From: a virus
Taxonomy: Duplodnaviria; Caudoviricetes
DNA length: 58,929 nt
Virus record (IMG/VR): IMGVR_UViG_3300020400_000001
Location: 1 to 58,929 of that record
Strand: one strand, 5' to 3'
In this document: one piece after another, positions 29,400 to 46,640 of the stretch
How the letters are laid out: the number at the start of each line of letters is the position of its first letter
Numbering within the stretch: position 1 is the stretch's first letter
Notes under the pieces: generated by a model
The model's database searches: none
Told to the model about the DNA's origin: nothing
Seen by the model: only the letters and a program-made list of their open reading frames with translations
Translations under genes and position numbers: made by a program

Positions 29400-30896
29400 T
29401 CAGTAATAGTCTGCGACTTTATTATGTTCTAATGGTTCTTCTTCCTCGTCACTATCCAAAGGAATAAAACCACCTTGTCTAAATCTTAACAGAGCTTGCG
29501 TGCTGCTATCAACTAAATCATCATGTTCCATATTAGGAAATCCTGCAAACTCTTCGACAACTTCTTCTGCCCAACGAGTCTCAGGACACCATACTACTCC
29601 TGATGAAAATAAATCTGATACAGCATTTACTCTCGAAATCTTATCGTTACCTCTGCTTGGCGTGTACTCTTGTACTGGTATTCCTATAGCACGCAGTTCA
29701 AATATCAAAGGCATCCCTGCTGCTTTTGCCTCAACAATGAAAGCATCGGGTTTGAATTCTTTATACTTATCCATAGCTCTAACTTTTAGCTCTGGAAACT
29801 CTAGCCTATCTTTATAGGCATCTAGCAATATTACATTGGGTGCTAGCATCCCTTCATCGTTTTCTTTATAGAACACTCCCCATGTAGTACAAGCAGAATA
29901 GTCAGCACGCTGGTTTTTCATAAAGGCAGTATCCCAAGATTGTATTATAAACTCACAGTCTGGTGGATTTCTGCCTTCCCATGTTTTCCACCATTCCCTC
30001 TTAACCAAGGCACTCTCTTCTGCTGTAGGGTCTTGTTGATACTGTGCTTGCCATTTGCTATTAGGCAGTTCTGCTCTCAAAGCTTCTAATTCTGTAAGCG
30101 ACCAAAACTCTTCCCACAATGGATTACCTGAAGGCATGATGGCTGGGAGTTCTATTACTTCCCATTGGTCTGCACCACCTCGCTTTATGCTAGCATCTAT
30201 AACCTGACCAGTAAGGTCTCGCTGATGCCATCTTGTCATTACCACAACGATAGCACCATTCGGTTGCAAACGCTGTCTCGGTCCTGATGTATACCACTCG
30301 TAAGTTCTATTGAATACATTGACATCGCCACTCGCACCCTCTTGTTCTGAATGAGGGTCATCGATTATCAATAAGTCTGCACCTTTACCAGTAACCGCAC
30401 CGCCTACACCTATTGCAAAGTATTCGCCACCTTTGTTGGTATTCCAACGACCAGCAGCTTTGCTATCTGCTTGCAAACTGACATCAGGAAATATCTTCTT
30501 GTAGTCTTTGCTGTTCACAAGGTTTCTAACCTTCCTACCAAAGCCAACCGCTAATTCTGCAGTATGGGCAGTCTGGATTATCTTCTTATCAGGTGAACGC
30601 CCTAAGAACCACGCAGGAAGCAAATAAGAGGCGAACTCACTCTTGGTATGTCTAGGAGGCATATTAATAATTAAACGCTTTATCTCGCCTCTAGCGACCT
30701 TCTCGAAAGCCTCAGCCATTATCTCGTGATGTTTACCATGAATAAACGCTGACCACATCTCTTGTACAAAGTTTAGGTAGTTATCGTGGGATAACTCTCT
30801 CTGCTTCGCATCCTCGTATTCTTCAAGCAAATCCAATAGCTCTGCTTTCTGAGAATTACTAAGACTCCTTATCTGATTTAAAACATTTTGATTCAT
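29400..30896 (-). CDS. terL: Terminase large subunit
   Basis: INMPPRHTKSE (Walker A variant), LLIIDDPH, MTRWH, nuclease QSWDTA...HDDLVDS. Confidence 0.95.
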   Translation of the reverse strand: MNQNVLNQIRSLSNSQKAELLDLLEEYEDAKQRELSHDNYLNFVQEMWSAFIHGKHHEIMAEAFEKVARGEIKRLIINMPPRHTKSEFASYLLPAWFLGRSPDKKIIQTAHTAELAVGFGRKVRNLVNSKDYKKIFPDVSLQADSKAAGRWNTNKGGEYFAIGVGGAVTGKGADLLIIDDPHSEQEGASGDVNVFNRTYEWYTSGPRQRLQPNGAIVVVMTRWHQRDLTGQVIDASIKRGGADQWEVIELPAIMPSGNPLWEEFWSLTELEALRAELPNSKWQAQYQQDPTAEESALVKREWWKTWEGRNPPDCEFIIQSWDTAFMKNQRADYSACTTWGVFYKENDEGMLAPNVILLDAYKDRLEFPELKVRAMDKYKEFKPDAFIVEAKAAGMPLIFELRAIGIPVQEYTPSRGNDKISRVNAVSDLFSSGVVWCPETRWAEEVVEEFAGFPNMEHDDLVDSSTQALLRFRQGGFIPLDSDEEEEPLEHNKVADYY

Positions 30897-30985
30897 AGTA
30901 GGTACATACTAGATTAGTAGATACTAATTAAAAATTCTTTAGTGGGTATATAACTGAGTGGGTATATACTAAGTAGTAGGTATAT
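30897..30985. repeat. Four iteron-like AGTRGGTAYAT repeats
   Basis: Copies start at 30897, 30941, 30957, 30975. Confidence 0.6.
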
Positions 30986-31053
30986 CTACTGCTAGACTTT
31001 ACCATATTATAGGGTCTTAACATCAAAAGCAACATATAAATCAAAAAATATAC

Positions 31054-31225
31054 TATGGGGGGTGTAGGATTCCTACCCTGTTTCTACATTCGATTATATA
31101 TATGGATTAAAAAACGCTATCATTTTGCAATACAATAGGGGGGGGTACATGAAAACACAACATCAAATGTGTAAATCACTATGTATGTATGTTATGCAAG
31201 TACCTTGCTAGCGTATGGGGGGTGT
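31054..31225 (+). repeat. Phased G-tracts; TATGGGGGGTGT twice
   Basis: TATGGGGGGTGT at 31054 and 31214; G8 at 31138-31145. Confidence 0.7.
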
Positions 31226-31266
31226 GGGTCTTTTGATTTCCTGACTTTCTAAAATCAAAGGGCGGG

Positions 31267-31342
31267 TGGTTAATTTTTAACCATCTGTTTTGGCTGGCTG
31301 ATTTGAGTGGTTAATCTTTAACCATTGGTTAATCTTTAACCA
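31267..31342. promoter_or_regulatory. Three 17-bp palindromes TGGTTAA-N3-TTAACCA
   Basis: 31267-31283, 31308-31324, 31326-31342. Confidence 0.75.
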
Positions 31343-31821
31343 GTTGGGTCTGTCGTTGTCTCCTCTAATAGAGCGATAATCTTCTCCTCTATATCCGATG
31401 CTATCTCTTCGCTATCTCTACTCTCTTTCACTTCGACTGTGTCTGTGAACAATCCGATTGTCTTTCCTAAAAGTTCTAAACTTCTGACTCTGCTTGCATC
31501 GCTGTCCGCTTCCTTACTCTCTGCCATTAGCCTTTCAAGAACATACTCTCTCGTTCGGACAGAGGATGCTACTGAGGACTGCTCTACCTTCTGAATTGCT
31601 CTTTGTATGCTTAGTGCAATCTTAGGGTTCGCCAGAAGCTTGCTCGACTCTGTCTCTGTCCATTTAGGCGGAGTGCCATCCTTTTTCATTTTTACATCAT
31701 AGACCTCACAGTAAGCATCTTTATATGTGTGCTTTCCTTTTATGATTAGGTCTACAAATTTTCTCTGCTTCGGTGTTAGGTCTGTTTGGTTCGGTACGAT
31801 TTTTAAATTGGGTTTTTTCAT
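31336..31821 (-). CDS. terS: Terminase small subunit
   Basis: LTPKQRKFV...AY..Y...SKLLANPKI, REYVLERL, RSLELLGKTIGLFTD; upstream of terL. Confidence 0.88.
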   Translation of the reverse strand: MKKPNLKIVPNQTDLTPKQRKFVDLIIKGKHTYKDAYCEVYDVKMKKDGTPPKWTETESSKLLANPKIALSIQRAIQKVEQSSVASSVRTREYVLERLMAESKEADSDASRVRSLELLGKTIGLFTDTVEVKESRDSEEIASDIEEKIIALLEETTTDPTG

Positions 31822-31823
31822 GG

Positions 31824-31840
31824 TGGTTAAATTTTAACCA
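31824..31840. promoter_or_regulatory. Fourth TGGTTAA-N3-TTAACCA palindrome, at the terS translation start
   Basis: TGGTTAAATTTTAACCA, 2 bp from the terS ATG. Confidence 0.7.
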
Positions 31841-31903
31841 GTTGGAGAAAATATTCCTAGTCAGAGTTCCTCTGAAACTACTATCTTTTTGCTTACTAAA
31901 TGC

Positions 31904-31931
31904 TTGCTTGCACATATGAGAGGTATATAAT
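31904..31931 (+). promoter_or_regulatory. Putative sigma70 promoter of the early operon
   Basis: TTGCTT-16 bp-TATAAT, divergent from terS. Confidence 0.55.
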
Positions 31932-31937
31932 TAGACA

Positions 31938-32372
31938 TATGAAGAACAGATTTAAACAGACACGAAACAAGCGACACGATTTGTCGCTCTCTCGTGGACA
32001 AAATATGGAGGGTAGAAACAATAGACCAGTAAAGATTTTTATTTGACCGCTTGCGGAAAACACCTAGGGAAGGTGGCAAGCGTGGAGTCAATCCTTGGCT
32101 CTCTAACTCAGGAAGGAAAACTCGCAGACAGGCTGACGAGGCGTGAAAGTAAGGACACCTCTGACCGACAGCGAAACAAGACTATCACTTGTTAGCACGA
32201 AACAAGATGTCGCAAAATGTAAATGATGGTCACTAACGAGTGACGATTGGATAGACATAAAGTGACCTATCCGACTCTGAGATGAGAATAAAAAAACATT
32301 TATGTAAAACAAATTCCTTAAAGAAAATTTTTTGTGAGGGATGGCGCTTTGCTATCCCTCGCAATATCTGTC
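31938..32372 (+). ncRNA. Candidate ~435-nt structured leader/ncRNA ending at the hammerhead 1 cleavage site
   Basis: No credible plus-strand CDS; at least seven stems visible by eye. Confidence 0.5.
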
Positions 32373-32417
32373 GCAAGGTGTGTGCCTTGCCTGAAGAAGC
32401 GAAAGCAGAAACAGATA
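32365..32417 (+). ncRNA. Type III hammerhead ribozyme HH1
   Basis: TATCTG-TC^-GCAAGG tgtgtg CCTTGC-CTGAAGA-a GC gaaa GC a-GAAA-CAGATA; GUC cleavage after 32372; very short stem II. Confidence 0.85.
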
Positions 32418-32448
32418 CTTTTAACTTTTAATTTTGCAGAGGTGCATT

Positions 32449-32565
32449 ATGAAAAATTTCTATATCAGAAATATCAAGGTGAACAGAGATAGCAGAAAGC
32501 AATCTGTTCGTAAATTTAAAAACAGTTCTCGATACTGGGAAGCACAATCCAAGGAGGTGGTCTAA
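32449..32565 (+). CDS. Small basic protein (38 aa, not in ORF track), first gene after HH1
   Basis: GAGGTG RBS; MKNFYIRNIKVNRDSRKQSVRKFKNSSRYWEAQSKEVV; TAATG coupling to next gene. Confidence 0.7.
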   Translation: MKNFYIRNIKVNRDSRKQSVRKFKNSSRYWEAQSKEVV

Positions 32566-32843
32566 TGGCGGAACTACAAAAAAACATGCTGACTATAGAG
32601 GAACGAGACGAGTTGCAGAATAAACTCATAAGAGATATTCAGACAATACTCATGCAAGCACATATGCTAGAGAAATGGTCGGAGATACTAAAAAGACTCG
32701 ACACTCTAAGCTACGATGCTGTCTATGATTTGATGGATACTTTTCTAAAAACTTCTCGATACTCTGAGAGCGCTAAGTTAAAGACAGTAGATTTTCTTAC
32801 TGTCCTTGCGGAACGAATGAGTGAAGATGGGAGGTGGTCATAA
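32565..32843 (+). CDS. Hypothetical early protein
   Basis: GGAGGT RBS; 92 aa. Confidence 0.75.
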   Translation: MAELQKNMLTIEERDELQNKLIRDIQTILMQAHMLEKWSEILKRLDTLSYDAVYDLMDTFLKTSRYSESAKLKTVDFLTVLAERMSEDGRWS

Positions 32844-33100
32844 TGAAAGATTTTTATGTGACTAAAGAGACAGTCGAAGTTCTCGAGTATAGAGGTTTTC
32901 GTATCCGAAAAATAATTACTCGTTCTGAGAAGTTTGGAACAGAAGTTTTTTACCATGCAGAGTATAAGAGGGATAGCGAATGGCATAACGAATATTTGTT
33001 ACCGACTTATTCTTGTGTGCGTGACTGGATTGACGAGCAACACGAAAGCGAGGACTTTCAAGAATGGGAGAAGGAAGTTTGGAATAATCCGAATTTCTAA
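32843..33100 (+). CDS. Hypothetical early protein
   Basis: GGAGGT RBS and TAATG coupling give start 32843. Confidence 0.7.
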   Translation: MKDFYVTKETVEVLEYRGFRIRKIITRSEKFGTEVFYHAEYKRDSEWHNEYLLPTYSCVRDWIDEQHESEDFQEWEKEVWNNPNF

Positions 33101-33144
33101 TCCATTTGAGGAGAGGGTTGAGCAATCAATCCTCTCTCTCAAAA

Positions 33145-33202
33145 AACTGTCATCGAGGTGTGTGCCTCGGTCTGATGATGGAACAAAAGTTCCGAAACAG
33201 TT
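33145..33202 (+). ncRNA. Type III hammerhead ribozyme HH2
   Basis: AACTG-TC^-ATCGAGG tgtgtg CCTCGGT-CTGATGA-t-GGAAC aaaa GTTCC-GAAA-CAGTT; cleavage after 33151. Confidence 0.93.
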
Positions 33203-33234
33203 CTTTTAACTTTCACAATTTGCGGAGGTGCAAT

Positions 33235-34311
33235 ATGAGTGAAGAAAATAAAATGATGGAAGCCTCTCCATCTAAAGCTTTGAGGCTATTAAACAATGTC
33301 GTGAGTGCTGGAAAAGTTCCGATGCTCTTAGGCGGTGTTGGTGTTGGTAAATCTGCGATAGTAAATGAGTTCGCTCAGGTGCTAGCTGGAGATAGAAAAA
33401 TCGTTGAGACAATTAGACCTAAGAAAGACGAGTTCGGTTCGCTTGATTTTAGAGCGAGTCTGTATGAGACGATTGAGTTGGGTGGTCTACCTTTCATTGT
33501 AAATGGAGAACAGAAGAGAGCGTTTCTCGGAAATCTTCCAGTCAGTGGAGAGGGTCTACTTTTTATTGACGAGTTCGCTCAAGCGACTGCGGATATGCAG
33601 AAGCTTCTCGGACAGTTGGTTCATGAGAGAAGGCTGGGAGAATATGTCATGCCTGAAGGCTGGCATATTGTCATGGCTGGAAACAGAGCGAGTGATAGGT
33701 CAGGTGCTAACAAGATGCTTGCTCATATGACCAATAGGCTGGCTCTGATTAATTTCAAGCATGATGTTAATGACTGGCTCGTTTGGGGTTCTCAGGCTGG
33801 TGTTCATTCCTCTATCTTAGGGTTCATAAATTTTATGCCTAAGTTGTTATGGAAGTTCGATGCCAAGGATAGTAATCCTCAACCTTCTCCAAGAGCATGG
33901 TCGAGACTGTCTGACATCATGAAGGCAATGCCTGAGAGTGACAAAGACTTGATGCCTTTCCACGCTCAGAGCAATGTCGGTATCGAGGCTGGATTAGAAT
34001 TTATGAATTTCATAAATCTATCTCAGGATATTCCGAACCTTGCAGACATTGTCGATGGCAAGAAGGTCGATGTTCCTGAGACCATGGGTCTGCAATATGC
34101 GACAGCAGTTGCGTTGGTCTCTGCCATCCAAGATGCAGACGAGAAGTTGAAGCCTTCATACTTCGATAACTCTCTGAAATGGATTGATACTTTTCCATCG
34201 AAAGAGTTCGCTGTCTTTTTCATGAGAGCGGTGGTCGGTGTCTGCCCTGAGTTGAAAAACACCAGCACCTATTCAGTTTTCATTTCTGAAAATGACAAGG
34301 TGTTAATCTAA
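33235..34311 (+). CDS. AAA+ ATPase (MoxR/dynein-related)
   Basis: Walker A GGVGVGKS, Walker B LLFIDE, MAGNR, NR finger, PSPRAW; start reassigned to ATG 33235 (GGAGGTG RBS). Confidence 0.9.
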   Translation: MSEENKMMEASPSKALRLLNNVVSAGKVPMLLGGVGVGKSAIVNEFAQVLAGDRKIVETIRPKKDEFGSLDFRASLYETIELGGLPFIVNGEQKRAFLGNLPVSGEGLLFIDEFAQATADMQKLLGQLVHERRLGEYVMPEGWHIVMAGNRASDRSGANKMLAHMTNRLALINFKHDVNDWLVWGSQAGVHSSILGFINFMPKLLWKFDAKDSNPQPSPRAWSRLSDIMKAMPESDKDLMPFHAQSNVGIEAGLEFMNFINLSQDIPNLADIVDGKKVDVPETMGLQYATAVALVSAIQDADEKLKPSYFDNSLKWIDTFPSKEFAVFFMRAVVGVCPELKNTSTYSVFISENDKVLI

Positions 34312-34328
34312 ATCAGACTGGTGGGGGG

Positions 34329-34349
34329 AAATATTACTAGTCAATATTT
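34329..34349. promoter_or_regulatory. Representative copy of dispersed palindrome AAATATTAC-N2-GTAATATTT
   Basis: AAATATTACTAGTCAATATTT; 12 or more related copies in the genome (see findings). Confidence 0.6.
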
Positions 34350-34367
34350 CTCCCTACTCAGTTTCAG

Positions 34368-34422
34368 AAACTGTAATCGAGTGGGTACTCGGTCTGATGA
34401 TTGCAAAAGCATGAAACAGTTT
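34368..34422 (+). ncRNA. Type III hammerhead ribozyme HH3
   Basis: AAACTG-TA^-ATCGAG tgggta CTCGGT-CTGATGA-t TGC aaaa GCA t-GAAA-CAGTTT; GUA cleavage after 34375. Confidence 0.88.
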
Positions 34423-34460
34423 TTTTAACTTTCTTTAAATTAATTTTGCGGAGGTGCAAT

Positions 34461-35426
34461 ATGAAAAAGAAAATCAAAATAGATACTATCTTTCAAGATA
34501 CTTTTACGAAGGTCAGGTTTTATTCGTCTGCCATTAGTGGTATCAAAAAAGATAGCTTTGCGAGTGAGGAGTTAGCCAGCAATAAAAATGCTGTCGCTTC
34601 TCTCGTTGGTGTTAATAAAAAAATCTTCGGTAGAGATATTAATAAAGAGTTCCGAAAAATTCAGAATGAATTTAGAAAGAAGTATCTTTATAAATATACT
34701 CACGCTTGGCAAGATGGCGAGGGCATGGCATCTGAATGGAGGATAGTCTCCAATGAGAAGCTTGATACTTTGCTTAATGGTTACGAAGAGTATGAGGCTA
34801 AGTTCTCAGAGTTGGTCAATGAGATTAAGACTGATTATCTTAGACTCATCCAAGAGGGCATGGCTAAACTTGGTAAGCTTGCGAATGAGCAAGACTACAA
34901 AGAATGGCATCAAATTGAAAAGAAATTTGCTTTCAATATAACGACTGACTTTTTCAGTTCTTATGACACAAGCAATGACGAAAGAATTCATGCGGATGCT
35001 AAGAGGAGAAAAGCGATAGAGAACAATGTCGCTTCTCGTTATGAGTCTAACTTCAAAGTGCTAGCAGAGAAGATGAAAAAGGACTTGGAGGGTTCAATAA
35101 CTAACATCATCAATGCTCTAAAGAAAGATGGCTCAGGTAAATCCTTTTTCAAGGACAGCGTGTTTCAAGGTCTTAAAGACCAAATTGAAACTAACAGAGA
35201 CCTGAATAAAAAACTCTTTCAAAGCGAAGAGATTGACAAGGCTATTCAAGTTTGTGTCGAGTCTCTCGCTTCAGTAAATGACATCGACTCTCTGAGAGAC
35301 AAAGGCGATATTGGAAAAACCAAAAGAGCAAAAGTCACTCAGGACATGGAGAAGGCTAAGTCAATTCTTAATCAGAATACGCTTGGCAAAATCTTTTCAG
35401 GTGCTGGATTAGAGGAGGGCAAGTAA
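34461..35426 (+). CDS. Helical protein, DUF3150-like, partner of the AAA/VWA pair
   Basis: GVNKKIF, YTHAW...WRIV, MAKLGKLANEQDY pattern; position between AAA and DUF2201 genes; start reassigned to 34461. Confidence 0.55.
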   Translation: MKKKIKIDTIFQDTFTKVRFYSSAISGIKKDSFASEELASNKNAVASLVGVNKKIFGRDINKEFRKIQNEFRKKYLYKYTHAWQDGEGMASEWRIVSNEKLDTLLNGYEEYEAKFSELVNEIKTDYLRLIQEGMAKLGKLANEQDYKEWHQIEKKFAFNITTDFFSSYDTSNDERIHADAKRRKAIENNVASRYESNFKVLAEKMKKDLEGSITNIINALKKDGSGKSFFKDSVFQGLKDQIETNRDLNKKLFQSEEIDKAIQVCVESLASVNDIDSLRDKGDIGKTKRAKVTQDMEKAKSILNQNTLGKIFSGAGLEEGK

Positions 35427-36973
35427 TGAGTAGCTACGATAAATCTCAGAGGTCTCTTCATGGTGGTCTTTCTGCTAATGAAGTAATGCTCAAGGCGAAA
35501 AACAAATTGATGAATTCTGAGTCAGGTCTTGCATCAATTCTTTTGAGTCTGCCCTTGGAAGAGGATAGTTCTTTTGACACCATGGCAACCAATGGCGAGG
35601 TCATAAAATACAATCCTGATTTTGTCCTCGGTCTACCGATGGAAGAAATCAAAGGTGTCCTCATTCACGAGGCTCTTCATGTTGTATGGGGTCATCATCT
35701 TAGAAGAGGCGATAGGCATCCGAAGCTTTGGAATATTGCTACTGATTATGCAATCAATGGCTATGAAGTTTATAAGCTTGGGAAACAGTTGCCTCAAGGT
35801 GCATTGCTCTCGCATAGATACCTAAACAAAGATGGCTCTATCATGGATGCGGATACCATTCATGACATCTTGTTCGATGACGATGAGGCTCTTCAAGAAG
35901 CTATCGATGATATGCAACAGCAGATGGGCGATGACTCTGACGAGAACGAAAGTCAGGGTCAGGGTCAGGATGACAATCAAGATGAGTCTGAAGAGGATAC
36001 TCAAGGCTCAGGCTCAGGCGATGGCGATGAGGAAACCGATGAGGAAACCGAAGGTCAGGGTTCAGGCGGAAATGCAGATGGAGATGCGGAGACTGGTGAT
36101 GATGAAAATATTACTGGTCAGGGTTTCTCCGATGAGCGTTCTCCTGAGACCAATGAGTCAGGGAAGATTGACTTGAATGATTTGCCTCAGATGGCTGGCG
36201 GTGTCTTTGACATGACTAACGAAGATGGCTCTCAGTTTTCTGAAGATGAGTTGCAAGAGCAGATAACTAAACTTGATGCTCAAGTAATGATGGCAGAGAA
36301 AGTTCAAGGCATGATTAATTCAGGCGAAGGCTCAGGGATTGATTATCTCGGAGGTCGTAAGTCTGAGTTGGTTGAGCAAGTTGTTCCTTGGGAGGATATG
36401 TTTAGAGATATGTTCACTCAGGTTCAATCGAACAATAACACTTGGTCTATGCCTAATCGCAGACACATGGCTCGTGGTATCTATATGCCTAGTAAGGACA
36501 AAGAACCATCAATCAAAAATGTCGTGATGCTGGTTGATGTTTCAGGTTCTACTGAGGGTGATAGAGACTCATTCATTACTGAGGCTCTCGCTATCCTCGA
36601 AGAGTTTCAGGTCAAGAAACTCATGGTCAATAGGTATGCTGGTGTCGCTCTCAGAAATGAGCAAGGCGAATACTTCGATGTCTACGATACTGACCAAGGA
36701 GATGAGATGCCTGATAAAGATGAAATCAATTTTGCTGGGTCAGGGTGGACTAACTTCGATGCGCCATTCAATGCTGTCGAAGAGTTCCTCGACCTTGATG
36801 AGATTGATTTGATTGTTCACTTCTCGGATGGAGAGGGAAGCTTCGAGCAAGAACATGATGCCTTGCTTGATACTCCTATCTGTCATGTCTTTAGCTATGG
36901 TCAGGATGGCAGTAGCTATGGCGGTAATGAGATTGAAGAGTCAGGTTTCGGAGAAGTTATCTACATGAGTTAA
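35426..36973 (+). CDS. DUF2201-type metallopeptidase-like plus VWA domain protein
   Basis: TMATNG..IKYNPDFV, HEALH (HExxH), WNIATDYAIN, acidic linker, MIDAS DVSGS, GWTNF, FSDG. Confidence 0.85.
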   Translation: MSSYDKSQRSLHGGLSANEVMLKAKNKLMNSESGLASILLSLPLEEDSSFDTMATNGEVIKYNPDFVLGLPMEEIKGVLIHEALHVVWGHHLRRGDRHPKLWNIATDYAINGYEVYKLGKQLPQGALLSHRYLNKDGSIMDADTIHDILFDDDEALQEAIDDMQQQMGDDSDENESQGQGQDDNQDESEEDTQGSGSGDGDEETDEETEGQGSGGNADGDAETGDDENITGQGFSDERSPETNESGKIDLNDLPQMAGGVFDMTNEDGSQFSEDELQEQITKLDAQVMMAEKVQGMINSGEGSGIDYLGGRKSELVEQVVPWEDMFRDMFTQVQSNNNTWSMPNRRHMARGIYMPSKDKEPSIKNVVMLVDVSGSTEGDRDSFITEALAILEEFQVKKLMVNRYAGVALRNEQGEYFDVYDTDQGDEMPDKDEINFAGSGWTNFDAPFNAVEEFLDLDEIDLIVHFSDGEGSFEQEHDALLDTPICHVFSYGQDGSSYGGNEIEESGFGEVIYMS

Positions 36974-37074
36974 TCTCAATGAGCGTTCTGAGAGGAGGTT
37001 TTTAGGGTGGTACTAAACCTTAGCCTCCTCTCTTTTCGCCAGCGAGAGAGCCTCTATGGAGGTCGAATTCAGGA

Positions 37075-37158
37075 AACTGATAGAGAAAATGTGTGTTTTC
37101 TCCTGATGACTCAATATGAGAGCGTGTAAGCGTTGGTTCAAAAGAACCGAAATCAGTT
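37075..37158 (+). ncRNA. Type III hammerhead ribozyme HH4 with a 25-nt insertion in the core
   Basis: AACTGA-TA^-GAGAAAA tgtgtg TTTTCTC-CTGATGA-[37110-37134]-GGTTC aaaa GAACC-GAAA-TCAGTT; AUA cleavage after 37082. Confidence 0.8.
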
Positions 37159-37186
37159 CCTTTTAACTTTCAAATGCGAGGTGCAT

Positions 37187-37366
37187 ATGAAAAAAATATA
37201 TGAAAAGTTTTTGAGTCTTTTCAAAACTCAAGTGGTGGAAGATAAATCTTATTATCTTTCGTATGAGAATGGTGGTGTTCTTGTTTTGCACAATCCTGTG
37301 GAACAGGGAGGAGAAAATATTACGAGTAATATTTCCTCAAGCGTCACAAAAACTGGAGGTGCGTAA
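37187..37366 (+). CDS. Small early protein (59 aa)
   Basis: GAGGTG RBS gives start 37187; TAATG coupling. Confidence 0.7.
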   Translation: MKKIYEKFLSLFKTQVVEDKSYYLSYENGGVLVLHNPVEQGGENITSNISSSVTKTGGA

Positions 37367-37665
37367 TGGCAGAAGTAAAAGAAACAATGTTGTACATGGA
37401 TGAGCGAGTTGCTTTGAAGAATGAGGTAAGTGATTTGCTTGATACTATTTCTGTGATAGCTGATGACTTACTTTCTTATCAAGAAAGTATCGACAGACTA
37501 GATGGAATTAGTCTAGATAAAGTGAAAGACCTGAAAAGGTCACTTGTGACTTTCTCTAACATCTGCGAGGGTGGAGTTGTCGAAGCGTGTCAAGTTGCTC
37601 AGGCATCACTTGGTTTCTTAATAAGAGAAATTGAGGAAGATAGAGAGCAAGGAGGTTCGCTATGA
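37366..37665 (+). CDS. Hypothetical acidic early protein
   Basis: GGAGGT RBS; 99 aa. Confidence 0.75.
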   Translation: MAEVKETMLYMDERVALKNEVSDLLDTISVIADDLLSYQESIDRLDGISLDKVKDLKRSLVTFSNICEGGVVEACQVAQASLGFLIREIEEDREQGGSL

Positions 37666-37922
37666 GTGATACAGTTCTTAAATTGTCAAAGCAAAGACAC
37701 AAAATCTTAGAAAAGTCTGCAAGGAAGGTGGACATTCTGCTCACAATTCCGATGGAAGAAGCTATAGCAATGGCAACACTTCTTGAGGTCTTGATTGAGT
37801 CTGCTAGTGGGTCAGAGCCTTTGGAGTTTTGGAAGAGTGATGAGCAAGTTGTAGAGATTTGCAATTCAGTTTTGAAATTTCTCGACAAAGCAGAAGTAAA
37901 AGTCTCGGAGGTTTCCCAATGA
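37662..37922 (+). CDS. Hypothetical early protein
   Basis: GGAGGT RBS; ATGA overlap. Confidence 0.75.
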   Translation: MSDTVLKLSKQRHKILEKSARKVDILLTIPMEEAIAMATLLEVLIESASGSEPLEFWKSDEQVVEICNSVLKFLDKAEVKVSEVSQ

Positions 37923-38932
37923 GTATCATTTCAAAGGCTAATCCTACATGGTTGAATAGGGATGTTATTAGAGAACATTTCAGTACCATGCCTCATGGAG
38001 GTGTTCACAAAGCGGAAGGCTTCGGAGATGTTGAGAATAGATACAACACTATAGAGTCTACTGCTCTTTACATGACTTCCATGCTTGACTATGTAGATGT
38101 CAATGGAGAATGGATTGATAGGTTCATTGATGAAGATGTTTTGCTCGAAGAGTTAAAGGCTCATGTGCATGACCTTCATGGCAATCCTGATGAGTTGGAA
38201 ATGGATGATACGCTCGAAGATAATCTCATGTTTAATTGTCATAAGCGTGACTATGGAGAGCGTGGTCGTTTCATGCTTCATCATCCTTGCTTAATCTCTA
38301 TCGTGTATCCATCTACAAGGTGGCATATCCATGAAACTAATCTCAGATACTGGCTCAAGGTTTCTGCTCTGAGAAAAGCTTATCTTGAAAAAGATGTTGA
38401 TGCTTATCTCATAAATATAGAGAGACCTTATCGAGTGCCTGAGTTTGTTCGTTGGTGCTTACATGACCAGCAGAAAAACAATGCTAATCCGAGTGAATAT
38501 ACTGAGCATTGCAATCTTTCAAAAGAAAAATATTGGGAGGTTGTTCGCTGGTTGTGGACTGATACAGAGAATGTCTATGAACATTTTGTTCCTTGGATGG
38601 CTCTGATATTAGACCACGATGCGAAAGACATAAGACTCATGATGGATAAAGAAGATAGGGAAACCTTTGACCATTTACCTGACGAGTTCTATGTCTATCG
38701 AGGTGGAGAACACGAGCATATGTCTTGGACTTTAAGCAAACAAAAAGCTGAATGGTTTAGAGATAGATACGAAGGCTTGCGAGACTGCAAGCTTTTTGAA
38801 AAGAGTATCAAGAAAGATGAGGTGCTTGCTTATATCAATGCAAGAGACGAGGCAGAGATTATTCTCAGACCTCCAACCGAAACCTTTGTTGATTTCTGTA
38901 TCGAAGAGCAATTCAGAATAACGAAAGCATAA
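37919..38932 (+). CDS. Putative R-S-E clade ADP-ribosyltransferase
   Basis: C-terminal VYRG...MSWTLS...A.WF...DEAEIIL; start reassigned to 37919 (GGAGG RBS). Confidence 0.6.
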   Translation: MSIISKANPTWLNRDVIREHFSTMPHGGVHKAEGFGDVENRYNTIESTALYMTSMLDYVDVNGEWIDRFIDEDVLLEELKAHVHDLHGNPDELEMDDTLEDNLMFNCHKRDYGERGRFMLHHPCLISIVYPSTRWHIHETNLRYWLKVSALRKAYLEKDVDAYLINIERPYRVPEFVRWCLHDQQKNNANPSEYTEHCNLSKEKYWEVVRWLWTDTENVYEHFVPWMALILDHDAKDIRLMMDKEDRETFDHLPDEFYVYRGGEHEHMSWTLSKQKAEWFRDRYEGLRDCKLFEKSIKKDEVLAYINARDEAEIILRPPTETFVDFCIEEQFRITKA

Positions 38933-38954
38933 AAAAAACAAGGAAGTAAAAATT

Positions 38955-39004
38955 AGCGGAGGCTATGTGGTATTAATTTACTGCATAGTCTCCGCTTTTT
39001 TTTT
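38955..39004 (+). terminator. Intrinsic terminator ending the early operon
   Basis: AGCGGAGGCTATGTGGTA / TACTGCATAGTCTCCGCT stem followed by a T tract. Confidence 0.88.
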
Positions 39005-39095
39005 GGTCAAAAATCCTCTCCCGAAAACTATTACTGGTAAATATTTTTTCACCATCTCGTGTACGCTTGGTGGAGATTATGGTCAGAAAATTGAA

Positions 39096-39127
39096 TGTGG
39101 ATAATTCTGTGGATAAGCTGTGAATAG
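39096..39127 (-). promoter_or_regulatory. Tandem DnaA boxes
   Basis: TGTGGATAA (reverse complement of TTATCCACA) at 39096-39104 and 39108-39116; one-mismatch TGTGAATAG at 39119-39127. Confidence 0.75.
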
Positions 39128-39128
39128 T

Positions 39129-39157
39129 TTGACGAGGTGCAAGCCGATTGCTATACT
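39129..39157 (+). promoter_or_regulatory. Strong sigma70 promoter for the sRNA
   Basis: TTGACG-17 bp-TATACT with extended -10 TG. Confidence 0.82.
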
Positions 39158-39162
39158 GGTTG

Positions 39163-39261
39163 AACAGCGACAGAGATTGTCGTTATTAAGAAGTGTTTTA
39201 ACGACACCTCCTAAGAAAGTTAAAAGTTGAGAGAGGTAATAGACTGCCTCTCTCTTTTTTT
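39163..39261 (+). ncRNA. Putative trans-acting antisense sRNA (~98 nt) against the hammerhead-linked leaders
   Basis: Own promoter and terminator, no ORF; CACCTCC (39205-39211) and AAGAAAGTTAAAAGT (39213-39227) are complementary to the RBS and TTTTAACTTT box of all four leaders. Confidence 0.78.
39229..39261 (+). terminator. Intrinsic terminator of the sRNA
   Basis: GAGAGAGGTA-atagac-TGCCTCTCTC-TTTTTTT. Confidence 0.88.
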
Positions 39262-39365
39262 GTACAATGGGTTATTGGTTTATTTTTTTCATACCAATTC
39301 TCCCAATGAGGAGGTACTAGTACAATAAAATAATTCTTCTCTAGTGCCTCCTCTCTAAATTAAAA

Positions 39366-39394
39366 TTGAATTACTGATAGCATTTCTCTACAAT
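39366..39394 (+). promoter_or_regulatory. Putative sigma70 promoter giving a leaderless mRNA
   Basis: TTGAAT-17 bp-TACAAT; ATG 39401 falls at the expected +1 and has no SD. Confidence 0.55.
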
Positions 39395-39400
39395 AGCATT

Positions 39401-39712
39401 ATGTATGCAGTTGTAAGACACACTTACGAATTAGATTTGCCTGAACCTTTTGTTAAATCTTCTCAAAAAAGTATAGGGAGATGGGTGCATAAGGTGTGGG
39501 TACATGACTCCGAGTTAGATGCGATTGCTCATGCGATTAAATTACTTGACGAACCTCTGTTGAAACATGATGAGTGGGCGATGGATATTGCTATAGAACA
39601 GTTAAAAAATAATAGGTTCTATCAGTTGGGTAAAGAAAGCGTAGCGATAGCAGAAGTAGAACCTTCGCCTGACATAGTGTACTTACATGATGACGATAAC
39701 AAAATTAATTGA
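39401..39712 (+). CDS. Hypothetical protein
   Basis: 103 aa ORF. Confidence 0.7.
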   Translation: MYAVVRHTYELDLPEPFVKSSQKSIGRWVHKVWVHDSELDAIAHAIKLLDEPLLKHDEWAMDIAIEQLKNNRFYQLGKESVAIAEVEPSPDIVYLHDDDNKIN

Positions 39713-39721
39713 GGAGGCTAT

Positions 39722-40084
39722 ATGGCTGAGAAAAATTTATATATTAGGTGTGATGAAGAAACCTATGTGAAGGCAAGAGAGTTGGCACAAAAAAATCTTC
39801 GCTCTTTAAACAGACAAGTAATTCATTTAATCAATGAAGCTTATGATAGCGTTGTGAAATCAGAACCGCAGATTGCAGAACCACAACCTATCCAAGCAGA
39901 ACCACAACCTATCCAAGATGAAGAAGATGACAAGTATATTGATGGTGTTTTAAAAACAGATATATACAAATATAGAGACGATGTTCCTCGTGAAATCTTA
40001 GAAGAGTGGGAAAGTCAGGGTAAGCTTACTCAGTCAGGTTTAAAAAAGCTTTCTGAAATAAGGAAATTGGACTCGTCTGACTAA
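39722..40084 (+). CDS. Arc-like ribbon-helix-helix DNA-binding protein
   Basis: KNLYIRCDEETYVKARELAQKNLRSLNRQVIHLI matches the Arc/Mnt pattern; GAGGAGG RBS; internal AEPQPIQ repeat. Confidence 0.75.
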   Translation: MAEKNLYIRCDEETYVKARELAQKNLRSLNRQVIHLINEAYDSVVKSEPQIAEPQPIQAEPQPIQDEEDDKYIDGVLKTDIYKYRDDVPREILEEWESQGKLTQSGLKKLSEIRKLDSSD

Positions 40085-40550
40085 GATACCAAAAGTTTAG
40101 CATTGCATCTGAGCAATCAATCACACTATCAAGTTGCGACTGAGTAATCCTATCAGGGTTCTCAGTCATGACTTTCCAAAACTCTTTCTCCTTCTTACTT
40201 CCACAATCCTCAACCAATCTGTTTTGAACTTGGCTTAGTACAAGTGGTTTTGTATTGACGCTGGGAGAACTATTACTGGTAAATATTTTGTCAAGGTCGC
40301 CAGCCGAACTCTGTGGAAAAACTCCTGACCTAGAAATCAAACCTAAATATTTATCACAAACATTGTGTTGTTTCTCGTTGATTAGTTGTTCGGTATAAAG
40401 CTTGTCGATAATATGCTGGTCAAAGACTATGGCTCTACCAACCTTGGTATTGTCAATGCTTCTAACTTCTACCTTGTGTCTCAGATGTAGATAGGAATTT
40501 CCTACATCATTTACGATTAGAACTTCCTCAGAAATCCCAGTCGAAGTCAT
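40026..40550 (-). CDS. Hypothetical protein downstream of primase-helicase
   Basis: ORF overlapping the helicase 3' end; start probably 40550. Confidence 0.6.
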   Translation of the reverse strand: MTSTGISEEVLIVNDVGNSYLHLRHKVEVRSIDNTKVGRAIVFDQHIIDKLYTEQLINEKQHNVCDKYLGLISRSGVFPQSSAGDLDKIFTSNSSPSVNTKPLVLSQVQNRLVEDCGSKKEKEFWKVMTENPDRITQSQLDSVIDCSDAMLNFWYLSQTSPISLFQKAFLNLTE

Positions 40551-42348
40551 CTTCTTGTTCTTCAATCTCTCCATACCTACCATTTACTGGATTATAATTA
40601 AGCTTAACACAGCCGAGTTTAGCGTTCCAATACCACCTTGCCTTGGTGCAATGTATTTCGACAGCCTCGTTGCCTCTATGGACTGCTAGGCAGACATCAG
40701 GCTTGGTACTCCATGCCATCGACTTAGCTATATCAAGCGGTGTTGGGTGTCCTACTTTTTCTTTGTTGAATGGTTTGCTCGGATGTGCCACGAACCAAAC
40801 CAAACAATCTGTTTGCTTGGCAAAGAGTTGCACCTTGCTCAACATATCGCTGACCATATCTGTTTCTAAAGCATAAGACTTATCGGTATGTATAAAGTTG
40901 AATGGGTCTATTACTAACATCCTACATCCCATCCTTTGGATACTTGCTTGTGCTTTATCAAGGATAGCTTCTATTGTCGGTAATCCTCCATCCAAATAAT
41001 CTTGGAACAATATGTGTTCCTCTATCCATGCGGAAGCATCATTCCTTTCTGCCTCTGTCATTCTTTCATTGTGTCCTTTGAAAAATGGCTTGCCAGTTAG
41101 TATCTGAGCGAGTTGCACGCTGTGAAATGAGGGCGGTTTTTCAAAGCTAGCATAACAAGTTTTCCAACCATACAGCTTGCCAGCATTGACTATCACTTGG
41201 TCGAGGAAAGCAGACTTCCCATGACCAGCCCATCCAGTCACGACATAAAGCTGACCAGTCTGAAGTGTGAACAAATCATCCAAGGACTTTATTCCAGTTG
41301 ATATACCTGAAGGCTTGCCATCTTTGTACAAACTCTCGAACTCATCTGAGTAATGCTTCATATTGTTCAATCCATGTAAAGGAATGGGTTCTGCATTGAG
41401 GACTTGCTTCCTCAGAGTTGCCTCGTCTGTATTGATAAGTAATTCATTGGCATCTTTGTATCCTTTGTAATCAACACGATAGCACTTTGCTTTCCCAATC
41501 CTTCTGCTCAATTCGTGAACCAAACAATCTCCAGCAGTATCAGTATCTGAGGCTAGTATTATCTTGTCATACTTGTCTAACAAATCTTTATCATTCCAAA
41601 CATACTTGAACCTACCATCTTCACTTGGGTCTACCTTCCCATCAGTAATCTTGTTAGGACTTCCATTTGGCACAGAGAAAACAGAGACATCCATATCTGC
41701 ATCCAAGAAAGCTTGCTTGATTGACAAGGCATCCATCTCTCCTTCTGTTATAACCAATCCCTCAATCCTTTTACTTTCGTCTCCTTCCTTTCCCCACAAT
41801 TTGCTAGCAGAATTTGTCCACCAAAAGTCTTTCTTGCCATTGGCTGTACGCCATTTACAAGCAGAAACTTTTCCGTTTTCCCAGTATGGAAAACCTATTA
41901 CCAGTAAATGTTTTGTCTCCTCCCAGACACAATCCATTTTTTTGGCGGTATCTAAATCAATCTTTCTATTGCCCAACCATTGTTCAATCTTCTGCTCGCA
42001 CTCCGATAGCTTCTCTTCTTTTATTGTGCCTATAGATATGCTTCCTCCTTTGGAACTCATGATACTTAAACTACCACTTGTTGTTAGTGTGGCTGATGTT
42101 GTTGAGTCGCTTACTATTTCCATACTTCTTTCTCCTTTTCTAGATATGCCTCCCTTGATATTACAATGATGGCAGTAATAGGTAATCATATCTATGCTAA
42201 TGTTCACACTCAAAGGTGTGTCCTTTTTGTTTTTCTTTCTTTGGCTGGAACAGTTAGGGCAAATGATTTTGTATTGACCTACCTTCAGACCTGATGTCCT
42301 TGGGTTGCTATCAATATGCTGGCGAATTTCTTTCTTTTCCATTCTCAC
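40528..42348 (-). CDS. Bifunctional primase-helicase (T7 gp4/Twinkle-like)
   Basis: Zn finger CPNC...CHHC, TOPRIM ITEGEMDAL and DTD, Walker A GWAGHGKS, VIDP, VAHP. Confidence 0.92.
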   Translation of the reverse strand: MRMEKKEIRQHIDSNPRTSGLKVGQYKIICPNCSSQRKKNKKDTPLSVNISIDMITYYCHHCNIKGGISRKGERSMEIVSDSTTSATLTTSGSLSIMSSKGGSISIGTIKEEKLSECEQKIEQWLGNRKIDLDTAKKMDCVWEETKHLLVIGFPYWENGKVSACKWRTANGKKDFWWTNSASKLWGKEGDESKRIEGLVITEGEMDALSIKQAFLDADMDVSVFSVPNGSPNKITDGKVDPSEDGRFKYVWNDKDLLDKYDKIILASDTDTAGDCLVHELSRRIGKAKCYRVDYKGYKDANELLINTDEATLRKQVLNAEPIPLHGLNNMKHYSDEFESLYKDGKPSGISTGIKSLDDLFTLQTGQLYVVTGWAGHGKSAFLDQVIVNAGKLYGWKTCYASFEKPPSFHSVQLAQILTGKPFFKGHNERMTEAERNDASAWIEEHILFQDYLDGGLPTIEAILDKAQASIQRMGCRMLVIDPFNFIHTDKSYALETDMVSDMLSKVQLFAKQTDCLVWFVAHPSKPFNKEKVGHPTPLDIAKSMAWSTKPDVCLAVHRGNEAVEIHCTKARWYWNAKLGCVKLNYNPVNGRYGEIEEQEDDFDWDF

Positions 42349-46424: not shown

Positions 46425-46640
46425 ATGGAATTTGAGTATGACAGCAAGATAGGTTTTGAAGAGAACTTCAAGCTTTGGTACAACGAGAACTCTAGGGAAA
46501 GGAGGGCATATAACCAAGAGCCTCATCCTTTTCCTATTGGCAAAAGGATTTTCACAGAACTCTATGGTAATAGAATTCTTGAAAAGAAAAACTTAACTAA
46601 TTTTTTTGGAGGTGCAGATGGCACAGAAACAGAGAAGTAA
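46425..46640 (+). CDS. Hypothetical protein
   Basis: 71 aa ORF. Confidence 0.6.
   Translation: MEFEYDSKIGFEENFKLWYNENSRERRAYNQEPHPFPIGKRIFTELYGNRILEKKNLTNFFGGADGTETEK

Follow-up and report, generated by a model that had tools for sequence, protein, structure and literature searches.

Four hammerhead-bearing leaders and one complementary small RNA gene in a phage operon: a candidate for shared antisense control

When several gene blocks of one phage operon are each preceded by a candidate self-cleaving ribozyme and a leader of one standard form, what could act on these leaders together? The question is raised by the viral record IMGVR_UViG_3300020400_000001, here called the window, which is an entire 58.9-kb phage contig (58,929 bases, one contig). 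Its hammerhead operon carries four candidate hammerhead ribozymes (HH1 to HH4), each followed by a short box, a Shine-Dalgarno (SD) sequence and a start codon, and beyond the operon terminator a separate unit at 39129-39261 is predicted to encode a small RNA with an anti-SD and an anti-box segment. An earlier note on this DNA had joined these elements into one circuit, and its coordinates for the boxes, SDs, promoter, terminators and new 5' ends all match the sequence. We propose, with a probability that we put at roughly 0.55, that the ribozyme-released leaders are silenced together by this one trans-acting small RNA, a reading in which we infer cleavage, transcription and repression from the sequence.

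The proposal turns on the complementarity between the small RNA and the leaders. The claimed 12 to 13 box pairs and 6 to 7 SD pairs in all four leaders, in the right order, were confirmed by the sequence, with contiguous box complementarity of 12, 12, 13 and 12 nt and SD complementarity of 6, 7, 7 and 6 nt in leaders 1 to 4, respectively. The two stretches are collinear, and pairing of both loops out the spacers between box and SD, which measure 10, 9, 14 and 6 nt. Counting both strands, the window has five exact copies of TTTTAACTTT: those at 32419, 33204, 34423 and 37161 are on the plus strand, and one, at 39216-39225, is on the minus strand. The lone copy outside the leaders is thus the complement inside the 39129-39261 unit. 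Since the box motif with one mismatch is not enriched (27 found versus 20.1 +/- 4.6 expected), only the exact copies carry signal. When the processed leaders are folded, all four are predicted to leave the first part of the box unpaired and to place the SD in a UGC/GCA hairpin loop. In its standard form, the leader has an unpaired UUUUAACUUU(C) box ahead of an SD that such a hairpin presents in its loop. The unit shares its strand with the four leaders, at a distance of 2.0-6.8 kb, which sets it apart from cis-encoded RNAs of the lambda OOP type, made from the opposite strand (PMC12197685).

The unit itself has the features of a gene. A consensus scan finds the promoter and the terminator that the earlier note had assigned to it (Table 1), and both are conserved across the phage family while the interior diverges. 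The family sample comprised 82 loci, namely, 10 close loci, in which the ATPase encoded by the operon is 82-96% identical, and about 70 distant ones (40-53%). In eight close sequences, the small-RNA promoter hexamers, anti-SD, anti-box and terminator are invariant. One relative, L006, has the promoter TTGACG / TATAAT, a replaced 5' half and an anti-SD to anti-box spacing shifted by 2 nt, and two others, L001 and L008, carry an 18-nt insertion in the 5' half. A search for CCTCC(A/T) ahead of a stable hairpin with a T run behind it returned exactly one unit in each of 33 sources, with a terminator hairpin of -11 kcal/mol or better and 7-9 U; the terminator stems vary in sequence by clade, and the 7-9 U are always on the plus strand. 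Of the 39 loci whose sequence continues for 5,665 nt or more past the ATPase gene, 30 contain the unit. Among the nine misses, L049 holds a variant with a different 3' end, and no DnaA-box cluster was found within the fetched range of L022, L070, L072, L074, L078 and L079; in the 7 kb retrieved for them, L072, L074, L078 and L079 do carry hammerheads. In the window, the predicted small RNA folds at -29.9 kcal/mol (z-score of -4.1; 0 of 200 shuffles were as good), and it has no match in Rfam 15. Nothing was found encoded opposite the unit, and no conserved minus-strand open reading frame (ORF) follows GGAGG. We conclude that the predicted RNA of 39164-39261 is the product of a real plus-strand small RNA gene. 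A minus-strand reading of the unit, as a leader plus a small ORF, was also considered and rejected: there is no start codon in the window clade, and the ORFs elsewhere are not conserved.

The surroundings of the unit are likewise shared. Its two tandem DnaA boxes are the only perfect ones in the genome and lie in front of the small-RNA promoter, 13 nt upstream of its -35 element; the primase/helicase gene is 1.3 kb away, and this neighbourhood may be the replication origin region. Allowing up to one mismatch, 2-4 DnaA boxes were found upstream of the unit in 29 of 33 sources, one in two and none in one. Aligned upstream regions share an 18-mer repeat, tandem TGTGGATAA boxes and a promoter TTGCAAnnTGCAATC with TATATT, with diverging flanks; in distant clades, the small-RNA promoter is of the form TTGCAA-type / TATATT. 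Behind the promoter, 20-130 variable nt lead up to a small hairpin, with ACCUCC(A/U) after it. Of the small RNA, it is the anti-SD ACCUCC that is universally conserved, and not the anti-box. In the window, the small-RNA promoter in addition contains an operator-like palindrome, which, together with the adjacent, sole perfect DnaA boxes, suggests that expression of the small RNA is regulated.

If the leaders are the targets, the anti-box should have changed along with them, and this co-change in relatives was also expected by the earlier note. The variable sequence that separates ACCUCC from the terminator in other clades does complement the words of the clade's own leaders, in collinear order: UAGUUAGUA pairs with UACUAACUA, AGUUAAUA with UAUUAACU, AUACAAUU with AAUUGUAU, and UGAGUU with AACUCA, the last with an additional U6-GGAG run. 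The strength of this pattern was assessed with ten clades, a small number, for which we chose the representatives ourselves, taking a single locus for each distinct seed. Duplexes with own-clade leaders had a mean energy of -17.4 kcal/mol versus -13.9 +/- 0.76 in permutations, and 2 of 20,000 permutations did as well (6 of 20,000 without the window clade and with rows and columns centred). Own-clade leaders came first in six of the ten clades, second in two, fourth in one and last in one. The two-part complementarity is in this sense clade-specific; clade F is nearly without an anti-box.

The ribozymes were identified with a descriptor of our own. Its sequence terms are CUGA-N(1-2)-GA, GAAA and H17; its helix terms are a stem III with 5 bp or more, the A15.1-U16.1 pair among them, and a stem I hairpin with 4 bp or more. 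It yields exactly four matches in the window, all on the plus strand, and with the stem covariation in the family described below, the four hammerheads of the earlier note stand as motifs. All four copies have the core C3 U4 G5 A6 N7 G8 A9 plus G12 A13 A14 (CUGAAGA or CUGAUGA, then GAAA), and H17 is C, C, A and A in HH1 to HH4, respectively. The minimum-free-energy folds of HH1 and HH2 yield the three-way junction (z-score of -2.6 for HH2). Comparison with relatives revealed a compensatory G-C to A-U change in stem I of HH1 (L002, L004 and L005), an exchange of ACGAGG/CCTCGT for AGCAAG/CTTGCT in stem I of HH2, a replaced stem II of HH3 in L007 and L010 with compensatory stem I changes in L007, and an exchange of GAGAAAA/TTTTCTC for GGGAGAA/TTTTCCC in stem I of HH4. 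Insertions like that of HH4 are also present in distant loci. The possibility that the box serves as an extension of stem III was rejected as a general explanation, as, judged by eye, only HH2 could gain four A-U pairs.

Across the family, the survey covered the window and the 82 loci (827,853 bases, 83 sources) and gave 196 matches, all on the gene strand and none on the opposite strand, with at least one match in 74 of the 83 sources. One mononucleotide shuffle gave no match, and ten dinucleotide shuffles gave two in total. An SD and a start codon directly follow 195 of the 196 hammerheads, the distance from ribozyme end to start having a median of 31 nt (range, 13-41). The 196 hammerheads comprise 126 distinct sequences with 46 different stem I closures; H17 is A in 106, C in 83 and U in 7. 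N7 varies among the copies and consists of two nucleotides in 26 of them (19 with CUGAAUGA and 7 with CUGACUGA). Covariation was evaluated in an alignment of 61 distinct short forms, for which the descriptor had demanded stem III and the outer 4 bp of stem I and neither stem II nor the inner stem I pairs. In these, 92.1% of the cells pair, compared with 62.4% in shuffles (0 of 500 reach it) and 34-42% with slid partners, and both-side changes occur at 13 of the 16 hammerhead pairs. The descriptor had left the three inner pairs of stem II free; they show both-side changes in 9, 31 and 13 sequences, and U16.1-A15.1 is invariant in 61 of 61 aligned copies. The hammerhead fold of the family motifs is thus strongly supported, and from it we infer cleavage.

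Table 1. Positions of the hammerhead operon, the small RNA unit and associated features in the window
Feature	Position	Strand	Details
Putative sigma-70-type operon promoter	31904-31931	+	TTGCTT, 16 nt, TATAAT
Conserved, apparently non-coding 5' leader	31938-32333	+	about 400 nt, promoter to HH1
Stable hairpin upstream of HH1	32334-32362	+	no T run after it; conserved in relatives
HH1, type III	32367-32415	+	predicted cut after C32372, new 5' end 32373; core CUGAAGA ... GAAA; stem II base A.A
Leader 1	32417-32451	+	box ACTTTTAACTTT 32417-32428, SD GAGGTG 32439-32444, ATG 32449
Block 1	32449-33100	+	three overlapping genes
HH2, type III	33146-33201	+	predicted cut after C33151, new 5' end 33152; extra U between A9 and stem II
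Leader 2	33203-33237	+	box CTTTTAACTTTC 33203-33214, SD GGAGGTG 33224-33230, ATG 33235
Block 2	33235-34311	+	MoxR-like AAA ATPase
HH3, type III	34370-34420	+	predicted cut after A34375, new 5' end 34376; stem II base U.U
Leader 3	34423-34463	+	box TTTTAACTTTCTT 34423-34435, SD GGAGGTG 34450-34456, ATG 34461
Block 3	34461-36973	+	two overlapping genes; second (35426-36973) with DUF2201 metallopeptidase-like domain
HH4, type III	37077-37156	+	predicted cut after A37082, new 5' end 37083; A9 and stem II separated by two extra hairpins (about 25 nt)
Leader 4	37160-37189	+	box CTTTTAACTTTC 37160-37171, SD GAGGTG 37178-37183, ATG 37187
Block 4	37187-38932	+	four overlapping genes
Operon intrinsic terminator	38955-39005	+	18-bp stem and T9; consensus scan reports 38955-38996
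Two tandem perfect DnaA boxes	39096-39116	-	TTATCCACA
Small-RNA promoter	39129-39157	+	TTGACG, 17 nt, TATACT with TG extension; consensus scan
Predicted small RNA	39164-39261	+	about 98 nt; predicted transcription start
Small-RNA 5' hairpin	39166-39184	+	
Anti-SD	39205-39211	+	CACCTCC, partly covered by second hairpin; TA follows
Anti-box	39213-39227	+	AAGAAAGTTAAAAGT
Small-RNA terminator	39229-39261	+	hairpin 39229-39254 and T7 run; 10-bp stem
Copies of the 18-mer TATTACTGGTAAATATTT	39029-39046, 40271-40288, 34332-34349, 41896, 47289(-), 49668, 50731(-)		

A mechanism can be drawn from these elements. The region 31904-38996 would form a single operon of ten genes under a host-type promoter. 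Through overlapping stop and start codons (TAATG or ATGA), the ten genes fall into four blocks, and each block is preceded by a stable hairpin, a type III hammerhead and a standard leader. Hammerhead chemistry leaves a 5'-OH on the downstream product. Self-cleavage would accordingly release an upstream piece ending in a hairpin with a 2',3'-cyclic phosphate and a downstream mRNA starting with a 5'-OH and a folded ribozyme body, the body being retained because a type III hammerhead cuts near its 5' side. Cleavage at HH1 would remove a conserved operon leader of about 435 nt, and the hairpin upstream of HH1 would form the 3' end of that product. The hairpins before HH1, HH2 and HH3 have no T run behind them and are absent from the terminator-like sites of the consensus scan; we read them as 3' stabilisers rather than terminators. 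The single-stranded, A/U-rich anti-box beside the small-RNA terminator would probably nucleate on the exposed box, after which CACCUCC, partly held in the second hairpin, would cover the SD of the first cistron. This would block binding of the 30S subunit, and the mRNAs may become exposed to decay. With translational coupling of the overlapping genes, silencing of a whole block is possible. As the pairing site abuts stem III, the small RNA might also modulate ribozyme folding. The early timing and the dormancy switch that the earlier note attached to the circuit found no support in these analyses. A wider proposal, which we regard as tentative and clearly less probable than the shared silencing in the window itself, is that this is a protein-free, post-transcriptional regulon found throughout the family, in which the co-evolving anti-leader RNA, its promoter flanked by DnaA boxes, would tie translation of all ribozyme-released mRNAs to the replication state of host or phage.

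Several observations weigh against the proposed shared silencing and are gathered here, beginning with the ribozymes. The pair at position 10.1-11.1 is A.A in HH1 and U.U in HH3, and it is G-C in HH2 and HH4 but with 1 or about 25 extra nt after A9. Of 49 aligned short forms from the family, 43 have a non-standard pair here, mostly U.U. Candidates mispaired at this position were rejected by Perreault et al. unless activity could be demonstrated (PMC3088659), and the cleavage rates are uncertain for the same reason. Rfam 15 reports no hammerhead at the gathering score in the whole window or at an E value of up to 10 in 32000-39500, where the latter search returned chance-level microRNA and small nucleolar RNA matches only. 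The non-standard 10.1-11.1 pair may explain why Rfam misses such copies, and since this region next to the core departs from the standard form, the motifs of the window and the family appear to represent a hammerhead variant rather than a textbook member. Metatranscriptome contigs from four marine runs, compared with 30800-40800, match the operon in scattered places, with at least 99% identity (run X1, 14 contigs, 12 of them at 99% or more; X5, 5; X6, 2; X2, 0). Among the matches listed (15 of 21), none of the 15 pieces bridges a cleavage site. No contig covers 39150-39483, and such contigs show neither RNA ends nor absence.

The remaining adverse points concern the pairing. When all 45-nt segments were scanned for duplex formation with the small RNA, its own antisense strand came first and the leaders ranked 2, 4, 5 and 10. 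The HH2 leader (-24.3 kcal/mol) is the best beyond that antisense strand and is tied with a segment inside the ATPase gene; the four leaders span -24.3 to -21.8 kcal/mol, and non-leader segments at 33301, 46576, 37541, 58001 and 14296 fall in the same range, so that duplex energies separate the leaders poorly from the background. The earlier note had expected the four leaders at the top of a ranking of start regions, and this was largely borne out. Among 86 SD-preceded starts ranked by pairing, the leaders of HH4, HH3 and HH1 came first, second and fourth, the leader of HH2 was outside the ranking because the filter chose an upstream in-frame start instead, and the third place was taken by a start without a hammerhead, at 46618 (93 amino acids). 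In the clade test, the single leader sampled from clade C came last for that clade's own RNA, and the leaders of clade G2 came fourth for theirs. In clade F, ACCUCCAAGGUA is all that precedes the terminator, which is almost no anti-box, and the RNA pairs only with CCUUGGAGG; the anti-box is hence not universal. Exact complementarity upstream of the SD alone gave a weaker result (40 of 20,000 permutations; 302 of 20,000 without the window clade), so that the duplex-energy test on whole leaders is clearer than the exact-complement test, which offers modest support. Furthermore, concerted evolution of the leader copies, including an inverted copy, could produce clade-specific complementarity without any function in trans. 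Finally, the box that the earlier note regarded as conserved is indeed invariant in all leader copies of the 10 close loci, where the spacers differ, but it is not special to the window phage: a (U)UAACU(U/A) motif follows the hammerheads family-wide, and the 121 distinct leaders in distant loci mostly start with AACU, UAACU, UUAACU or alike. The window box UUUUAACUUUC contains UUAACUUU, which matches the T7 epsilon enhancer in 8 of its 10 letters (PMC9590205). From the family-wide motif and this likeness, the box may be conserved for reasons apart from the small RNA.

At the start at 46618, a box-like AACUUAACUAAU is found together with GGAGGUG (46576-46620). It is possible that this start is a fifth target.

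The alternative that best withstands these data grants that the small RNA is real and places its main role elsewhere, as a general anti-SD RNA for host mRNAs or other mRNAs of the phage, or as a DnaA-controlled origin transcript serving transcriptional activation or replication control; the match to the leaders would then merely reflect an origin of the RNA from an inverted leader. That ACCUCC(A/U) is the only universally conserved sequence of the RNA agrees with this, as do GGAGG-type SDs at many other starts, the position of the unit beside 2-4 DnaA boxes and 1.3 kb from the primase/helicase gene, and the precedent of lambda, in which the promoter pO matters for the control of replication (PMC12197685). 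What it does not readily accommodate is that 12-13 nt match all four leaders exactly and match nothing else in the 58.9 kb, which is hard to maintain without selection. In addition, the two-part collinear complementarity has been renewed with different sequences in other clades, and the seed stayed invariant while the 5' half was replaced. We consider a main role elsewhere rather improbable, though it deserves more weight than the explanations that follow.

A second alternative, which we judge unlikely, holds that the box is a cis element, such as an epsilon-like enhancer, a site for S1 or another protein or a 5'-end stabiliser, and that 39129-39261 is a decaying inverted copy of a leader, resembling promoter and terminator by chance and regulating nothing in trans. 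Its force comes from the (U)UAACU(U/A) motif, which follows the hammerheads whatever the small RNA looks like, and from the reverse complement of the unit, which reads like a leader (hairpin, box, spacer, GGAGG) with an ATG 7-11 nt after the minus-strand GGAGG in several clades. It also draws on UUAACUUU being part of the T7 gene 10 epsilon UUAACUUUAA, an element that, like the window box, stands just upstream of a strong SD in a phage leader (PMC9590205). The likeness of the window box to epsilon is one of sequence and position only; enhancement is a feature of epsilon. The epsilon enhancer has a proposed 16S ribosomal RNA partner. A decaying copy fits poorly with the rest of the family, since minus-strand ORFs are absent in the window clade and range elsewhere from 0 to 47 or more codons (18 versus at least 47 between the closely related L034 and L051), and since the plus-strand promoter hexamers, their spacing and the U7-9 terminator are kept across clades that share little else. 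Nor would a relic hold one syntenic place in 30 of 39 loci. As far as its letters go, the window box is the local version of a general family leader element, and it may have a role in cis whether or not the small RNA pairs with it.

A role in cis has also to be considered, in which the unit would serve the genes at 39401-40084 as a leader or attenuator, with conditional readthrough of the terminator, and would not be a free-standing RNA. The next plus-strand genes do begin 140 nt past the terminator, and the length of the 5' part of the unit differs by clade; the ORF at 39401, however, has its own promoter-like site (39366-39394) in leaderless placement and no SD, the terminator is strong (10-bp stem, U7), and the complementarity to leaders 2-7 kb away would be left unexplained, which makes this a very unlikely account. 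That the hammerheads are inactive relics or structured spacers, with mRNA 5' ends made from promoters or by host RNases, is highly improbable: the non-canonical 10.1-11.1 in most copies, the missing Rfam match and the two-nucleotide N7 CUGAAUGA in 19 of 196 copies point that way, yet, with the core letters fixed by construction, stem II pairs that were not required covary as well, the gene strand carries all 126 distinct sequences with their 46 stem I closures, and a catalytic core would not persist in relics among clades with ATPases 40-53% identical.

How does silencing of ribozyme-released leaders by one RNA compare with known systems? Clusters of hammerheads that flank genes in phages and prophages were described by Perreault et al. 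in 2011, who proposed that long transcripts are processed into gene-length mRNAs, and in a halovirus one hammerhead precedes a start codon by 13 nt, a 5' end having been mapped to within three nt of its cleavage site (PMC3088659). Like those systems, the window has several hammerheads per phage transcription unit, flanking single genes or short blocks. Unlike them, all are of type III and have a fixed leader with a box and an SD in a hairpin loop, the stem II base is mostly U.U or A.A, which the filter of PMC3088659 rejected, and a trans RNA is complementary to the post-cleavage leaders, a partner of which the passages of PMC3088659 drawn on here make no mention. Conversely, c4 of P1/P7 and sar of P22 are phage RNAs that pair around the ribosome binding site (RBS) and block translation, the complementary segments of c4 being thought to lie in loops; lambda OOP is listed as cis acting and sar as trans acting, OOP, sar and c4 have one target each, and the OOP promoter pO is important in the regulation of DNA replication (PMC12197685). 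The present RNA resembles c4 and sar as a small phage-encoded RNA complementary to a phage RBS region, here by sequence alone. In contrast to c4, sar and OOP, it is one RNA matched to four same-strand leaders 2-7 kb away that are preceded by ribozymes, with a two-part complementarity and a looped-out spacer. The 2025 review of phage small RNAs (PMC12197685) contains neither the word hammerhead nor the word ribozyme.

An engineered counterpart of the leaders exists in RiboJ. In that design, a hairpin that follows the ribozyme is said to help present the RBS. RiboJ is a synthetic hammerhead-type insulator placed upstream of an RBS, giving a defined mRNA 5' end regardless of the upstream context (PMC6206723). 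It is an engineered part, whereas the phage elements are natural, number four per operon and come with a matching antisense RNA. The claim that no described phage system joins hammerheads and an antisense small RNA agrees with our literature search, which returned no report of hammerhead leaders with a complementary phage small RNA, the supplements of PMC3088659, which possibly list related metagenomic hammerheads, lying outside the search. Novelty hence attaches to the combination and not to the ribozymes, as clusters flanking phage genes have already been published (PMC3088659): both phage hammerhead clusters and RBS-covering antisense RNAs were known, and what appears to be new is a trans RNA matched to hammerhead leaders. 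As by-products, the data suggest a small-RNA family missing from Rfam 15, together with a variant of the hammerhead whose 10.1-11.1 pair is non-canonical.

The role of the hundreds of bacterial hammerheads, many of them grouped with prophages, was said in 2011 to remain unclear (Perreault et al., PMC3088659). For this question the present family offers an unusually clean system, with 195 of 196 hammerheads at a fixed distance before a start codon, standardised leaders and one small RNA gene whose complementarity to them is renewed from clade to clade. Should the pairing be functional, the phage would provide a natural ribozyme insulator before an RBS, a design that synthetic biologists reached independently, and a natural switch in a virus in which one RNA acts on many leaders; it would also add an RNA family and a U.U 10.1-11.1 hammerhead variant undetected by Rfam 15 in the window. 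If the regulon reading is true, phage hammerheads would gain a defined regulatory role.

Further features of the ribozymes are worth recording. Across clades, the stem I loop hardly varies from (A/G)UGUGU(A/G), and that of stem II reads GAAA or AAAA; this conservation of both loops suggests a loop-loop tertiary contact. In L006 (6860-7006), the first gene block is gone, and the hairpin and 5' strand of HH1 are joined to the body and leader of HH2. The fusion is a chimeric ribozyme with one stem III mismatch and suggests that the repeated ribozyme cassettes serve as recombination points.

At the head of the operon, the promoter hexamers are kept in six relatives (TTGCTC / TAGAAT or TATAAT) while the spacer diverges; the consensus scan missed this promoter because its -35 element matches only 3 of 6 positions. 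The 5' leader behind it is predicted to be highly structured, with a mean column identity of 80% in seven sequences and indels only in predicted loops. One helix is doubly compensated (columns 490/521 and 491/520) in three of the seven sequences. No Rfam match was found for 31938-32333. Hammerhead-like words, CUGAyGAGG ... CGAAAC, are present in it, as is a duplicated CGAAACAAGA segment, absent from L002 and L009 through deletion.

Seven copies of the 18-mer TATTACTGGTAAATATTT (up to 3 mismatches) occur, versus 0.18 expected, and 0 of 100 shuffles reach seven. One copy is the hairpin before HH3, and one lies just upstream of the small-RNA DnaA boxes, in distant clades too; a related copy is located upstream of the operon promoter in relatives. 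The 18-mer may be a binding site for a phage regulator. Beyond the small RNA unit, the promoter-like site at 39366-39394 (TTGAAT, 17 nt, TACAAT) ends 7 nt before the ATG at 39402, without an SD, and the 103-amino-acid ORF that begins there (to 39712) may be translated from a leaderless mRNA. The start of the following ORF (39722-40084) has what we take to be a ribbon-helix-helix motif; no family search matched it.

With respect to its setting, the plus-strand hammerhead operon is positioned between the terminase and portal side of the genome and the replication and recombination genes. PHROG matches place both terminase subunits and the portal on the minus strand, left of 31821; the primase/helicase gene (40528-42348) is also on the minus strand, and genes for an exonuclease, a Sak-like annealing protein and RusA lie farther right on the plus strand. 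No tRNA genes were found in the window phage, and a giant protein of 2,648 amino acids matches only families of unknown function and, weakly, an acetyltransferase. We treat the phage as an uncultured marine tailed phage, a marine assignment that follows from the metatranscriptome contigs at least 99% identical to parts of the region and from related loci in a viral metagenome collection. A DNA search of a phage collection with the 7-kb region gave zero matches, and a search of the same collection with the ATPase protein gave 777 records, all below 60% identity (25-30% among the matches listed); the collection searched thus holds no cultured close relative. In a collection of prokaryote genomes, the sole ATPase match was a 3.6-kb contig (L083) in a metagenome-assembled genome bin of an uncultured member of the Flavobacteriales; it is probably a phage contig and too weak a basis for naming a host. 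Four perfect GGTTAA-N3-TTAACC palindromes (31268-31282, 31309-31323, 31327-31341 and 31825-31839) were found versus 0.16 expected, a number that 0 of 100 shuffles matched. They flank the small terminase gene, with one in the divergent region ahead of the hammerhead operon, and could be operators or terminase recognition sites.

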